A stretch of DNA of 8,805 bases, taken from IMG/VR virus record IMGVR_UViG_2684622618_000007. The stretch is one strand, 5' to 3'. This DNA comes from a virus (lineage: Duplodnaviria > Heunggongvirae > Uroviricota > Caudoviricetes). Both the position numbers and the translations under genes were made by a program. Positions within the stretch are counted from its first letter, which is position 1; every line of letters starts with the position of its first letter. Below the pieces are notes generated by a model that saw nothing but the letters and a program-made list of their open reading frames with translations, ran no database searches and was not told the DNA's origin. Positions 1 through 8,805 of this stretch are shown here, piece by piece.

Positions 1-2
1 AT

Positions 3-113
3 TTTGAATATTATTTACAGGTAAATGGAGTGGGGCACATGGATAGAAATATTACAATAGAGTATGAAGTATATGCCCGTATTGTATGGGCAGAGAAGGC
101 AAAAACATGGTAA
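3..113 (+). CDS. Possible 3' end of a CDS entering from upstream (hypothetical); ends TAA at 111-113
   Basis: Open frame from the window edge (frame of nt 3) to TAA 111-113; internal ATG at 39 preceded by GGAG at 27-30. Only 36 codons visible; no recognisable product. Confidence 0.2.
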   Translation, partial: FEYYLQVNGVGHMDRNITIEYEVYARIVWAEKAKTW

Positions 114-353
114 TTCCGTGTGTTGCCATGATACCTGATTGGCAGAATTGTTGTTTGGTTTTGAGTATATAGTCAGCGTCTTTTGTTCGGTAATTGCTCT
201 TTCAATTAAAATGCCAGATATGATTTGCTTTTCTTTGTTGTTTAGTTTTTTTGTATATTATTTTTATTGTTTTTATATAATTAGTTTTTTATTGTTGTCT
301 TATTAAGGACGGTAAATTCAGGATGGCAGTCTGTAGATAAACGGAGGTTACTT

Positions 354-411
354 ATGCTACATGATCACCTGGCAGAATGTCTGGAGAAAAAAGGACTGTA
401 CCGGAGAGCAG
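354..411 (+). CDS. Small hypothetical ORF, 5' part only (MLHDHLAECLEKKGLYRRA...), truncated by assembly gap
   Basis: ATG at 354 preceded by GGAGG at 343-347 with a 6-nt spacer; frame stays open into the N run at 412. Confidence 0.35.
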
Positions 412-461
412 NNNNNNNNNNNNNNNNNNNNNNNNNNNNNNNNNNNNNNNNNNNNNNNNNN
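412..461. other. Assembly gap (50 N)
   Basis: Run of exactly 50 N. Confidence 0.97.
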
Positions 462-499
462 GACTTTAGTGGTCGCTTTTTGTGTCATATATAAGTCGT

Positions 500-828
500 T
501 TAAGTAAACCTGTCTGAACAGGTTCTCTGGTCGTGTTTGTCTTTGTTGGGTACAAATTGAGAATATTTTTCATTAATTAATCTTCTTCTGCAGGCTTCAA
601 TAACCCACGCTGAAAAATTTCCTGAACCTTTCAGATCAAGAGCGATGTTAATTTGTTCAATCATCTGGTTTGGAAATCGGATGTTGCGGGTTGTTGTNNN
701 NNNNNNNNNNNNNNNNNNNNNNNNNNNNNNNNNNNNNNNNNNNNNNNGATGTTAATTTGTTCAATCATCTGGTTTGGAAATCGGATGTTGCGGGTTGTTG
801 TTCTGCGGGTTCTGTTCTTTGATGACAT
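500..828 (-). CDS. Small basic protein, YlcI/DUF3950-like, putative ribbon-helix-helix DNA-binding protein; reading frame interrupted in this assembly by a gap and duplication
   Basis: Minus strand: ATG at 828-826 gives MSSKNRTRRTTTRNIRFPNQ; 664 down to stop TAA (complement of 500-502) gives MIEQINIALDLKGSGNFSAWVIEACRRRLINEKYSQFVPNKDKHDQRTCSDRFT. The two parts join into one about 74-aa ORF if the duplicated 54 bp and the 50 N are collapsed. Matches my memory of E. coli prophage YlcI-family proteins (not verifiable here). Confidence 0.55.
644..697. repeat. 54-bp direct duplicate, copy 1 (abuts gap)
   Basis: Identical to 748-801; ends exactly at the N run. Confidence 0.9.
698..747. other. Assembly gap (50 N)
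   Basis: Run of exactly 50 N. Confidence 0.97.
748..801. repeat. 54-bp direct duplicate, copy 2 (abuts gap)
   Basis: Identical to 644-697; begins exactly after the N run, consistent with unmerged overlapping contig ends. Confidence 0.9.
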
Positions 829-1027
829 AATGTTGCCCCATATTCAGTGTTGCTGATTTGTATTATCTGAAGTTGCTTTTACGTTAATTTGATGCAGATC
901 AATTAATACGATACCTGCGTCATAATTGATTATTTGACGTGGTTTGATGGCGTAGATGCACGTTGTGACATGTAGATGATAATTATTATCATTTTGCGGG
1001 TCCTTTCCGGCGATCCGACCGGTTACG

Positions 1028-1039
1028 GGGCGGCGACCT
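1028..1039 (+). other. cosN: cosN: 12-nt cohesive-end sequence GGGCGGCGACCT (terminase nicking site)
   Basis: Exact lambda cohesive-end 12-mer, preceded by GGTTACG (lambda right-end terminus) and followed by CGCGGGTTTTCGCTATTTATGAAAATTTTCCGG (lambda left-end start), as recalled. Confidence 0.85.
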
Positions 1040-1076
1040 CGCGGGTTTTCGCTATTTATGAAAATTTTCCGGGGAA

Positions 1077-1090
1077 AATCATGTCGGTAC
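1077..1090 (+). repeat. R3-like element (AATCATGTCGGTAC)
   Basis: 11/14 match to the repeat core. Confidence 0.5.
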
Positions 1091-1135
1091 TTCTCGAACA
1101 TAACTATTTGTTTTTTCTAATATCGAATCCGTAAA

Positions 1136-1149
1136 GGTCCGACATGAAA
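1136..1149 (-). repeat. R2-like element, inverted (reverse complement TTTCATGTCGGACC)
   Basis: 14/14 match to the R1-like copy, opposite orientation. Confidence 0.55.
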
Positions 1150-1176
1150 ACGCCTGAAAAAGTCATTTTCGGGCAC

Positions 1177-1190
1177 TTTCATGTCGGACC
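1177..1190 (+). repeat. R1-like element (TTTCATGTCGGACC)
   Basis: Exact copy of the repeat core, 25 nt upstream of the Nu1 start. Confidence 0.55.
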
Positions 1191-1214
1191 CTGTATTTGT
1201 TGTGAGACTGTTTC

Positions 1215-1734
1215 ATGAAGGTTAATAAAAAGAAACTTGCCGAAATTTTCAACGTGGATCCGCGAACGATTGAACGCTGGCAGTCTCAGGGGCTCCCTTG
1301 CGTCTCCGGAGGTGGTAAGGGCGTTGAATCTGTATTTGATACCGCCACGGCAATTCAGTGGTATGCGCAGAGGGAAGCTGATATCGAAAATGAAAAACTC
1401 CGTAAAGAGGTTGAGGATTACAGGGCTGCCAGCGAGGCAGATCTCCAGCCTGGGACTATTGAGTACGAATGCCATCGACTTACGCGTGCGCAGGCTGACG
1501 CCCAGGAGCTGAAGAATGCCAGAGACTCCGCAGAAGTGGTGGAAACCGCATTCTGTACTTTCGTGCTGTCACGGATCGCAGGTGAAATTGCCAGTATTCT
1601 TGACGGGATCCCTCTCTCAGTACAGCGGCGTTTTCCGGAACTGGAAAACCGACATGTTGATTTCCTGAAACGGGATATTATCAAAGCCATGAACAAAGCA
1701 GCCGCGCTGGATGAACTGATACCGGGGTTGCTGA

Positions 1735-1760
<26 letters not shown>
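1215..1760 (+). CDS. nu1: Terminase small subunit (Nu1 family); divergent N-terminal winged-HTH domain, lambda-like C-terminal domain
   Basis: 181-aa ORF. C-terminal two thirds ([14 protein letters not shown]...LSEYIEQSG) match lambda Nu1 as recalled; the N-terminal 70 aa differ from lambda but retain an HTH and the GGGKG motif (nt 1308-1322). Overlaps the A start by 26 nt. Confidence 0.92.
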
Positions 1761-5441
<3,681 letters not shown>

Positions 5442-5461
<20 letters not shown>

Positions 5462-6761
5462 TCTCCCGCATATTGCCAGCATGGCTTTTAATGAGCCGCT
5501 GATGCTTGAACCCGCCTATGCGCGGGTTTTCTTTTGTGCGCTTGCAGGCCAGCTTGGGATCAGCCGCCTGACGGATGCAGTATCCGGCGACAGCCTGACT
5601 GCCGGAGAGGCACCCGCGGCGCTGGCGTTATCCGGTGATGATGACGGACCACGACAGGCCCGGAGTTATCAGGTCATGAACGGCATCGCCGTGCTGCCGG
5701 TGTCCGGTACGCTGGTCAGCCGGACGCGGGCGCTGCAGCCGTATTCGGGAATGACCGGTTACAACGGCATTATCGCCCGTCTGCAACAGGCTGCCAGCGA
5801 TCCGATGGTGGACGGCATTCTGCTCGATATGGACACACCGGGCGGGATGGTGGCGGGAGCATTTGACTGTGCTGACATCATCGCCCGTGTGCGAGACATA
5901 AAACCGGTATGGGCGCTGGCCAACGACATGAACTGCAGTGCAGGTCAGCTGCTTGCCAGCGCCGCCTCCCGGCGTCTGGTCACGCAGACCGCCCGGACAG
6001 GCTCCATCGGCGTCATGATGGCTCACAGTAATTACGGTGCTGCCCTGGAGAAACAGGGCGTGGAAATCACGCTGATTTACAGCGGCAGCCATAAGGTGGA
6101 TGGCAACCCCTACAGCCATCTACCGGGTGATGTCCGGGAAACACTGCAGTCCCGGATGGATGCAACCCGCCGGATGTTTGCGCAGAAGGTGTCGGCATAT
6201 ACCGGCCTGTCCGTGCAGGCTGTGCTGGATACCGAGGCTGCAGTGTACAGCGGTCAGGAGGCCATTGATGCCGGACTGGCTGATGAACTTGTCAACAGCA
6301 CCGATGCGATCACCGTTATGCGTGATGCACTGGATGCACGTAAATCCCGTCTCTCAGGAGGGCGAATGACCAAAGAGACTCAATCAACAACTGTTTCAGC
6401 CACTGCTTCGCAGGCTGACGTTACTGGCGTGGTGCCAGCGACGGAGGGCGAAAACGCCAGCGCGGCGCAGCCGGACGTGAACGCGCAGATCACCGCTGCG
6501 GTTGCGGCAGAAAACAGCCGCATTATGGGGATCCTCAACTGTGAGGAGGCTCACGGACGCGAAGAACAGGCCCGCGTGCTGGCAGAAACCCCCGGTATGA
6601 CCGTGGAAACGGCCCGCCGCATTCTGGCCGCAGCACCACAGAGTGCACAGGCGCGCAGTGATACTGCGCTGGATCGTCTGATGCAGGGGGCACCGGCACC
6701 GCTGGCTGCAGGTAACCCGGCATCTGATGCCGTTAACGATTTGCTGAACACACCAGTGTAA
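5442..6761 (+). CDS. C: Prohead protease/scaffold gpC (S49/ClpP-like serine protease family)
   Basis: GTG start at 5442 preceded by GGAGGAG (5431-5437); product begins (V/M)TAELRNLPHIASMAFNEPLML as in lambda gpC; 439 codons; overlaps the B 3' end by 20 nt. The ORF-track start at 5307 is a non-initiating in-frame extension. Confidence 0.9.
6156..6761 (+). CDS. nu3: Scaffolding protein Nu3, translated in frame from an internal start within C
   Basis: In-frame ATG at 6156 (MDATRRMFAQKV...) at the position corresponding to lambda Nu3, sharing the stop codon of C. Assigned by homology of arrangement, not independent sequence evidence. Confidence 0.7.
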   Translation: MDATRRMFAQKVSAYTGLSVQAVLDTEAAVYSGQEAIDAGLADELVNSTDAITVMRDALDARKSRLSGGRMTKETQSTTVSATASQADVTGVVPATEGENASAAQPDVNAQITAAVAAENSRIMGILNCEEAHGREEQARVLAETPGMTVETARRILAAAPQSAQARSDTALDRLMQGAPAPLAAGNPASDAVNDLLNTPV

Positions 6762-6770
6762 GGGATGTTT

Positions 6771-7103
6771 ATGACGAGCAAAGAAACCTTTACCCATTAC
6801 CAGCCGCTGGGCAACAGTGACCCGGCTCATACCGCAACCGCGCCCGGCGGATTGAGTGCGAAAGCGCCTGCAATGACCCCGCTGATGCTGGACACCTCCA
6901 GCCGTAAGCTGGTTGCGTGGGATGGCACCACCGACGGTGCTGCCGTTGGCATTCTTGCGGTTGCTGCTGACCAGACCAGCACCACGCTGACGTTCTACAA
7001 GTCCGGCACGTTCCGTTATGAGGATGTGCTCTGGCCGGAGGCTGCCAGCGACGAGACGAAAAAACGGACCGCGTTTGCCGGAACGGCAATCAGCATCGTT
7101 TAA
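6771..7103 (+). CDS. D: Head decoration protein gpD
   Basis: 110-aa product [27 protein letters not shown]... matching lambda gpD as recalled; AGGGA Shine-Dalgarno 6 nt upstream of ATG 6771. Confidence 0.95.
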
Positions 7104-7120
7104 CCTGACCCTTCATCACT

Positions 7121-7146
7121 AAAGGCCGCCTGTGCGGCTTTTTTTA
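7121..7146 (+). terminator. Terminator-like GC hairpin followed by T-run in the D-E intergenic region
   Basis: GCCGC (7125-7129), loop CTGT, GCGGC (7134-7138), then T8 (7139-7145). Confidence 0.4.
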
Positions 7147-7158
7147 CGGGATTTTTTT

Positions 7159-8184
7159 ATGTCGATGTACACAACCGCCCAACTGCTGGCGGCAAATGAG
7201 CAGAAATTTAAGTTTGATCCGCTGTTTCTGCGTCTCTTTTTCCGTGAGAGCTATCCCTTCACCACGGAGAAAGTCTATCTCTCACAAATTCCGGGACTGG
7301 TAAACATGGCGCTGTACGTTTCGCCGATTGTTTCTGGTGAGGTTATCCGTTCCCGTGGCGGCTCCACCTCTGAATTTACGCCGGGATATGTCAAGCCGAA
7401 GCATGAAGTGAATCCGCAGATGACCCTGCGTCGCCTGCCGGATGAAGATCCGCAGAATCTGGCGGACCCGGCTTACCGCCGCCGTCGCATCATCATGCAG
7501 AACATGCGTGACGAAGAGCTGGCCATTGCTCAGGTCGAAGAGATGCAGGCAGTTTCTGCCGTGCTCAAGGGCAAATACACCATGACCGGTGAAGCCTTCG
7601 ATCCGGTTGAGGTGGATATGGGCCGCAGTGCGGCGAACAACATCACGCAGTCCGGCGGCACGGAGTGGAGCAAGCGTGACAAGTCCACGTATGACCCGAC
7701 CGACGATATCGAAGCCTACGCGCTGAACGCCAGCGGCGTGGTGAATATCATCGTGTTTGACCCGAAAGGCTGGGCGCTGTTCCGTTCCTTCAAAGCCGTC
7801 AGGGAGAAGCTGGATACCCGTCGCGGCTCTCATTCCGAACTGGAGACAGCGGTAAAAGACCTGGGCAAAGCGGTGTCTTATAAGGGAATGTATGGCGATG
7901 TGGCCATCGTCGTGTATTCCGGACAGTACGTGGAAAACGGCGTCAAAAAGAACTTCCTGCCGGACAACACGATGGTGCTGGGGAACACTCAGGCACGCGG
8001 TCTGCGCACCTATGGCTGCATTCAGGATGCGGACGCACAGCGCGAAGGCATTAACGCCTCTGCCCGTTACCCGAAAAACTGGGTGACCACCGGCGATCCG
8101 GCGCGTGAGTTCACCATGATTCAGTCAGCACCGCTGATGCTGCTGGCTGACCCTGATGAGTTCGTGTCCGTACAACTGGCGTAA
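7159..8184 (+). CDS. E: Major capsid protein gpE (HK97-fold)
   Basis: 341-aa product MSMYTTAQLLAANEQKFKFDPLFLRLFFRESYPF... matching lambda gpE as recalled; the upstream in-frame extension from 7132 in the ORF track is not the start. Confidence 0.95.
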   Translation: MSMYTTAQLLAANEQKFKFDPLFLRLFFRESYPFTTEKVYLSQIPGLVNMALYVSPIVSGEVIRSRGGSTSEFTPGYVKPKHEVNPQMTLRRLPDEDPQNLADPAYRRRRIIMQNMRDEELAIAQVEEMQAVSAVLKGKYTMTGEAFDPVEVDMGRSAANNITQSGGTEWSKRDKSTYDPTDDIEAYALNASGVVNIIVFDPKGWALFRSFKAVREKLDTRRGSHSELETAVKDLGKAVSYKGMYGDVAIVVYSGQYVENGVKKNFLPDNTMVLGNTQARGLRTYGCIQDADAQREGINASARYPKNWVTTGDPAREFTMIQSAPLMLLADPDEFVSVQLA

Positions 8185-8186
8185 TC

Positions 8187-8213
8187 ATGGCCCTTCGGGG
8201 CCATTGTTTTTCT
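8187..8213 (+). terminator. Perfect 7-bp stem hairpin with TTCG loop followed by T-rich tract, immediately after E stop
   Basis: ATGGCCC (8187-8193), TTCG, GGGCCAT (8198-8204), then TGTTTTTCT. Confidence 0.4.
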
Positions 8214-8225
8214 GTGGAGGAGTCC

Positions 8226-8624
8226 ATGACGAAAGATGAACTGATTGCCCGTCTCCGCTCGCTGGGTGAACAACTGAACCGTGATGTCAGCCTGACGGGG
8301 ACGAAAGAAGAACTGGCGCTCCGTGTGGCAGAGCTGGAAGAGGAGCTTGATGACACGGATGAAACTGCCGGTCAGGACACCCCTCTCAGCCGGGAAAATG
8401 TGCTGACCGGACATGAAAATGAGGTGGGATCAGCGCAGCCGGATACCGTGATTCTGGATACGTCTGAACTGGTCACGGTCGTGGCACTGGTGAAGCTGCA
8501 TACTGATGCACTTCACGTCACGCGGGATGAACCTGTGGCATTTGTGCTGCCGGGAACGGCGTTTCGTGTCTCTGCCGGTGTGGCAGCCGAAATGACAGAG
8601 CGCGGCCTGGCCAGAATGCAATAA
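8226..8624 (+). CDS. FI: DNA packaging accessory protein FI
   Basis: 132-aa product MTKDELIARLRSLGEQLNRDVSLTGTKEELALRVAELEEELDD... matching lambda gpFI as recalled; GGAGG at 8216-8220. Confidence 0.92.
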   Translation: MTKDELIARLRSLGEQLNRDVSLTGTKEELALRVAELEEELDDTDETAGQDTPLSRENVLTGHENEVGSAQPDTVILDTSELVTVVALVKLHTDALHVTRDEPVAFVLPGTAFRVSAGVAAEMTERGLARMQ

Positions 8625-8635
8625 CGGGAGGCGCT

Positions 8636-8805
8636 GTGGCTGATTTCGATAACCTGTTCGATGCTGCCATTGCCCGCGCCGATGAAACGATACGCGGGTA
8701 CATGGGAACGTCAGCCACCATGACATCCGGTGAGCGGTCCGGCGCAGTAATACGTGGTGTTTTTGATGACCCTGAAAATATCAGCTATGCCGGACAGGGC
8801 GTGCG
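8636..8805 (+). CDS. FII: Head-tail connector FII, 5' partial (runs off window)
   Basis: GTG start at 8636 preceded by GGGAGG (8626-8631); product (V/M)ADFDNLFDAAIARADETIRGYMGTSA... matches lambda gpFII N-terminus as recalled. Confidence 0.85.
   Translation, partial: MADFDNLFDAAIARADETIRGYMGTSATMTSGERSGAVIRGVFDDPENISYAGQGV

Follow-up and report, generated by a model that had tools for sequence, protein, structure and literature searches.

A 54-nt duplicate bordering a run of Ns in an E. coli O157:H7 prophage scaffold is very probably an artefact of short-read assembly

The exact 54-nt duplicate that flanks a run of Ns in this stretch of prophage DNA is not a biological feature. We consider it, with a probability of roughly 0.97, to be an assembly artefact in which overlapping contig ends of a short-read draft were left side by side with a placeholder of 50 Ns between them. 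The window, by which we mean the whole stretch of 8805 nt that was analysed, is the entire WGS record LEAH01000167.1 of E. coli O157:H7 strain CO6CE2940 (assembly GCA_001309925.1); the first 4760 nt of that record are the same as window positions 1-4760, Ns included. The window represents the late region of a lambda-like prophage, with a PerC-family gene, an antisense DUF3950 gene, cos, Nu1, gpA, W, portal, C, D and E. Coordinates of the features discussed are collected in Table 1.

Table 1. Contigs, gaps, repeats and genes of the window, in coordinates as deposited.
Feature	Position	Strand	Description
Contig A	1-411		Region upstream of pchB plus first 58 nt of pchB
pchB 5' end	354-411	+	58 nt; PerC-family regulator gene cut by gap 1
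Gap 1	412-461		Placeholder of 50 Ns; true content 300 nt
Contig B	462-697		236 nt; ylcI/ynfO-family gene (3' two thirds) and the sequence downstream of it
Real ylcI/ynfO-family gene	500-828	-	74 codons once 698-801 is removed; split and frameshifted as deposited
Part of the 70-nt repeat entered by contig B	636-697		Nearest Sp9/Sp10/Sp12 mismatches at 635 and 810
Left copy of the 54-nt duplicate	644-697		Last 54 nt of contig B
Spurious ORF	653-856	+	Exists only by reading through the N run
Gap 2	698-747		50 placeholder Ns; true distance -54 nt
Right copy of the 54-nt duplicate	748-801		First 54 nt of contig C
Contig C	748-8805		5' end of ylcI, cos, Nu1, gpA, W, portal, C, D, E onward

The arrangement was assessed through direct base comparison within the window. 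Positions 644-697 are the same as 748-801 over all 54 nt, and the two copies adjoin the two edges of a run of exactly 50 Ns (698-747), the suffix of the left contig being also the prefix of the right one. Both the identity and the abutment had been reported in the original prediction and are borne out here. A pattern composed of the two copies and their spacer, which matches the window through its Ns, is found there once and in none of 200 dinucleotide-preserving shuffles. A second run of 50 Ns is present at 412-461, and no flanking duplicate was found beside it. The start-to-start offset of the 54-nt copies is 104 nt, equivalent to 2 modulo 3, and the frame of the minus-strand gene is indeed broken, as had been supposed: the pieces present as deposited are ORFs at 500-664 and 661-828, the second of which reads through the Ns. 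The plus-strand ORF at 653-856, suspected from the outset of being spurious, contains a run of X in its translation and is gone when the duplicate is collapsed.

It had also been suggested that collapse of the duplicate might give one uninterrupted 74-codon ORF on the minus strand, and deletion of 698-801 yields precisely this (MSSKNRTRRTTTRNIRFPNQMIEQINIALDLKGSGNFSAWVIEACRRRLINEKYSQFVPNKDKHDQRTCSDRFT). The repaired 74-residue product scores 66.6 bits against the Pfam family DUF3950 (PF13132; cut-off 25, E = 1.8e-18) and has the same sequence as WP_001303940.1, named 'YlcI/YnfO family protein' in RefSeq, whose coding sequence occupies positions 3750-3974 of the corresponding locus in the finished genome of O157:H7 PV15-279. 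There is thus a very high probability that the underlying sequence carries an unbroken gene. Like ylcI and ynfO of K-12, which adjoin nohD and nohA, respectively, the repaired gene is positioned just upstream of cos and the terminase genes. However, the C-terminal third of its product is unlike K-12 YlcI and YnfO, and the DNA identity of around 90% to the K-12 genes is limited to the conserved 5' part. A PDB sequence search for a solved relative of the 74-residue protein gave no match at E <= 1. The ylcI-like region is present at 8-10 places in O157 genomes. Matches to this copy of it in the phage collection cover at most about 54% of a 701-nt query, so that chromosomal prophages are its best representatives.

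In finished genomes the 54-nt stretch is present in a single copy. The collapsed sequence of 535 nt (462-697 joined to 802-1100, spanning window positions 462-1100) is found in one piece, at 100% identity, in many complete E. coli genomes, O157:H7 and O121 among them; 426 records match it at 99% or better, and the best 20 matches listed are all full-length at 100%. In the PV15-279 locus, window positions 1-411, 462-697 and 748-1300 correspond exactly to 3001-3411, 3712-3947 and 3894-4446, respectively, and the 54-mer occurs once. Since contig B ends at 3947 of this locus and contig C starts at 3894, the true size of gap 2 is -54 nt. For CO6CE2940 itself we infer, from these other genomes and from the graph logic given below, that the true sequence would have one copy and no gap.

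The source study (BioProject PRJNA277539) sequenced CO6CE2940 on a HiSeq2000, using 100-bp paired reads and a 300-bp insert, and assembled it with ABySS 1.3.4 followed by scaffolding, in which the O157:H7 contigs were scaffolded using the EDL933 and Sakai references (PMC4563881). ABySS is a de Bruijn-graph assembler whose contigs stop at branch points and which writes runs of N at unresolved repeats (PMC5411771). Both the value of k and the program that wrote the Ns are absent from PMC4563881; the figure of k = 63 employed here comes from the fit of the contig ends.

This fit was obtained by comparing the repaired window with the homologous regions of Sakai prophages Sp3, Sp4, Sp5, Sp6, Sp8, Sp9, Sp10, Sp11, Sp12, Sp14 and Sp15, all differences being listed, and by simulating runs of unique k-mers in the repaired window against Sp3-6, Sp8-10, Sp12, Sp14 and Sp15 at odd values of k from 41 to 101, a model in which the Sakai paralogues substitute for the source strain's own. 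Among these values only k = 63 gives runs at 1-411, at 462-697 and from 644 onward. The distinguishing sites lie at 63, 349, 524, 635 and 810, and the ends of the contigs follow from them: contig A ends at 411 (349 + 62), contig B starts at 462 (524 - 62) and ends at 697 (635 + 62), and contig C starts at 644 in collapsed coordinates, deposited as 748 (706 - 62, where 706 is window position 810). The window itself starts at 1 (63 - 62), position 63 being where Sp4, identical upstream of it, first departs from the window. It ends at 8805, immediately ahead of position 8806, at which Sp11 and Sp8 first differ again following over 4 kb of identical sequence. In the Sp14 copy, at the pchC locus, a mismatch at 349 is followed by 175 nt of identity; Sp4 and Sp14 each have a mismatch at 524, preceded by 62 or more identical bases. 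The ylcI-like genes of Sp9, Sp10 and Sp12 are mutually identical; they mismatch the window at 635 and 810, with no mismatch between, and are heavily diverged outside. The exact repeat common to the Sp11-type gene and to Sp9, Sp10 and Sp12 is accordingly one of 70 nt (636-697 plus 802-809). With the single copy in finished genomes and the short-read, scaffolded source, these k = 63 ends support the original prediction that the duplicate is an unmerged contig overlap.

Taken as a model, the ends suggest how the duplicate may have arisen. The genome would hold several paralogous lambdoid prophages, Sakai-like at these sites, and the record would be a three-contig scaffold derived from a prophage resembling Sakai Sp11. 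A stretch of 70 nt in the ylcI/ynfO-family gene would be the same in Sp9/Sp10/Sp12-type copies, with the sequence on both sides differing. The left contig would then extend only as far as the last k-mer containing base 635, ending at 697, and the right contig would start at the first k-mer containing base 810, at true coordinate 644. Since both would run 62 nt into the 70-nt repeat, they would share 62 + 62 - 70 = 54 nt. In the graph, contigs B and C would be separated by a four-copy, 70-nt repeat node that was left unplaced and, because this node would lie between them with no direct edge joining the two, they would have stayed unmerged. A scaffolder would finally have set them in the right order and orientation, and written a fixed placeholder of 50 Ns.

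The contig ends resemble those of de Bruijn contigs (ABySS unitigs) in that they stop where k-mers lose their uniqueness, and all of them fit k = 63. Neighbouring ABySS unitigs, however, share k-1 bases, whereas the overlap in the window is 54 nt rather than 62 and, unlike direct neighbours in the graph, contigs B and C each overlap a 70-nt repeat node that is omitted from the scaffold. The original prediction is refined to this extent: the overlap comes about through the omitted 70-nt node at k = 63, and not as a direct overlap of k-1. A k of 63 lies inside the default compiled limit of ABySS 1.3.4, and the default minimum gap of abyss-scaffold is 50 N. A literature search for this 50-N default found nothing usable. 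The Ns may have been written by abyss-scaffold, and the reference-guided scaffolding step could equally have been their writer.

The simulation at k = 63 also predicts a junction at 958|958 (runs 644-958 and 958-1741), a place at which the window is continuous. The repeat there is of 123 nt (897-1019) and is bridged in LEAH01000167.1, while the shorter 70-nt repeat was left unbridged, indicating that a later assembly stage resolved the one and not the other.

Several other candidate causes were tried and rejected. With k = 55, for which 54 would be k-1 and contigs B and C direct graph neighbours, contig B would itself break, since Sp14 and Sp4 share exact stretches of 54-57 nt inside it; the ends simulated at this k (403, 470, 578, 689 and 652) are not those observed. 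A paralogue of the OR845833 type as the single cause would break contig B at 525-619, and its exact variant, absent from typical O157:H7, is confined to 56 records (those of O26 and O145, with a few others). The ylcI-like copy of a Stx1a-converting phage has its nearest right mismatch at 811, not 810, putting the contig start off by one. Sakai Sp15 lacks a copy altogether.

Two further records were compared. LEAG01000080.1, from strain CO6CE1943 of the same study, contains the 54-nt duplicate around a 50-N run, with copies at 525 and 629 and N runs at 579-628 and 840-889. The flanks of its second 50-N gap end and start at the window equivalent of 958, overlapping by 1 nt, and this gap matches the junction predicted there at k = 63. 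The same record carries the 300 nt of gap 1 contiguously, in a form identical to the PV15-279 fill. In LEAF01000089.1 the contig to the left of the 50-N run (1925-1974) ends at position 1803 of the Sakai Sp8 locus, which is the run end predicted at k = 63 on the Sp8 path, and the contig to the right opens with the 54-mer. The 50-N runs checked therefore stand for +300, -54 and -1 nt, so that the N length is a placeholder and carries no information.

These comparisons bear on the alternative that CO6CE2940 carries a genuine short tandem duplication, of 104 nt for example, in its Sp11-type ylcI/ynfO-family gene, the middle being masked, or unsequenced where the assembler failed to read through it; the gene would then be truly frameshifted and inactivated in this strain. 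By coordinate reasoning, a junction inside the hidden 50 nt would leave the duplicate touching the Ns on both sides, as seen. Yet the length of the N run is unreal, the other 50-N run replacing 300 nt, and the k = 63 junctions place the two outer edges of the duplicate with single-base accuracy. Moreover, the structure recurs in an independently sequenced strain handled by the same pipeline, finished genomes have one copy per locus, and a pattern scan of the viral and species-representative genome collections found no contig with two 54-mers 40-70 nt apart. We regard a real duplication as extremely unlikely.

It might also be supposed that the Ns are a mask laid over known sequence by a database and not an assembly gap, the description of the species-representative genome collection mentioning a few stretches masked as N. 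Against this, the NCBI assembly copy of LEAH01000167.1 has the same N runs, sister records show 50-N runs at other predicted graph junctions, and gap 1 puts 50 Ns in place of 300 nt, which a mask of equal length would not do. The probability of masking is accordingly negligible.

In LEAF01000089.1 a left flank of Sp8 type (Bor, DUF1398) is scaffolded onto an Sp11-type contig, a join that is probably chimeric. That this record attaches the same contig C start to an Sp8-type flank, and that contig C is largely collapsed Sp8/Sp11 sequence, would suit a scaffolding mis-join in the window too, with contigs B and C drawn from different prophages and the collapsed sequence absent from the strain. However, the first 1,000 nt or so of contig C (644-1741) are made up of k-mers that, among the Sakai prophages compared, are unique to the Sp11-type copy, and contigs B and C when collapsed match the Sp11-type locus at 100% in many finished genomes. 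A mis-join at gap 2 is thus very unlikely, and an overlap between correctly ordered contigs remains the preferred reading.

Gap 1 is of a different kind. Its flanks map 300 nt apart in the PV15-279 locus, and the bases hidden comprise the last 257 nt of pchB and 43 nt of intergenic sequence. Of pchB the window retains just 19 codons. The full ORF of 104 residues taken from the PV15-279 locus matches Pfam PerC (PF06069) with 148.8 bits (cut-off 22.6, E = 5.4e-44), and the homologous gene is annotated in Sakai as pchB, ECs_2182. The stretch went unplaced because it is near-identical in the Sakai pchA (Sp4) and pchC (Sp14) loci. Just upstream of pchB, positions 229-305 are very T-rich and AT-rich and contain loosely repeated units of 25 nt, and positions 200-349 vary strongly between the Sp4, Sp11 and Sp14 copies, through numerous substitutions and indels.

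The window is collinear with Sakai Sp11 (NC_002695.2, about 2,174.6-2,183.6 kb) at 99.5% identity over 8 kb, and no complete genome was found that exceeds 99.7% to the window. Gene order is as in Sakai Sp11, with pchB followed by the small antisense DUF3950 gene, cos and the terminase genes; unlike Sakai Sp11, the deposited window lacks 300 nt of pchB and spacer, and possesses the duplicate and the Ns. Once repaired, it has no difference from Sakai Sp11 before 1756. Between 1756 and 4085 the two differ at 42 sites, all of which have the Sakai Sp8 allele in the window, leaving no private differences. Sites informative for Sp11 versus Sp8 are of Sp11 type at 1367-1679, of Sp8 type at 1756-2745, and then in turn of Sp11, Sp8, Sp11, Sp8 and Sp11 type. 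When allele sites less than 63 nt apart are grouped, 11 SNP clusters result, not one of them with mixed alleles, which is the pattern expected from the popping of SNP bubbles between two collapsed copies. From about 1742, then, the window is probably a popped-bubble consensus of two collapsed prophages and not the sequence of a real prophage, to judge from its alleles; real gene conversion may also be the source of the mosaic (1756-4549). The Nu1 protein of the window differs from that of Sp11 by 1 residue and from that of Sp8 by 31, and all contigs on which an exact-protein look-up located this hybrid are under 20 kb in length. The gpA of the window is the Sp8 protein.

The significance of these results is one of data quality only. 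LEAH01000167.1 and at least one sister record show an intact small prophage gene as broken, and LEAH01000167.1 also truncates pchB, a PerC-family regulator gene with several prophage copies in O157:H7. Such records appear, in addition, to carry a two-prophage consensus that may not exist in the cell. Database entries already on record include a 65-residue DUF3950 fragment, a 19-residue PerC fragment and the hybrid Nu1, and fragment gene calls of this sort can distort pan-genome, pseudogene and prophage-typing analyses. On the other hand, the k of an assembler proves recoverable from a single scaffold, given a close finished genome, and this offers a cheap way to separate artefactual from real duplicates.

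Some additional observations concern the small gene and its surroundings. The 70-nt repeat encodes roughly residues 7-30 of the DUF3950 protein and is identical between the Sp11-type gene and the Sakai Sp9, Sp10 and Sp12 copies, which are otherwise 9% diverged and adjoin an unrelated packaging module (DNase/HNH, then a different small terminase); constraint or recombination could lie behind this identity. Draft contigs from other projects, AVRS01000042.1 and AVSI01000052.1, begin inside the small gene at the window equivalents of 581 and 607, showing that the locus repeatedly breaks contigs in short-read O157 assemblies. Position 581 is the site at which an IS element interrupts the Sakai Sp4 copy.

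Downstream, cos (GGGCGGCGACCT) is positioned at about 1026. An ORF of 85 residues on the minus strand (844-1101), called across the cos site in the NCBI record, has no Pfam hit and is likely to be a spurious call. A scan of the whole window with Rfam at gathering thresholds gave no match. Between cos (about 1026-1037) and the start of Nu1 (1215), the motif TCATGTCGG(T/A)(A/C)C is present three times within 1066-1190, at about 1079, 1136-1147 and 1178, in the orientations +, - and +. This set, which includes a 25-nt inverted repeat (1136-1160 and 1166-1190) with 88% complementarity, may represent small-terminase binding sites of a cosB differing from that of lambda.
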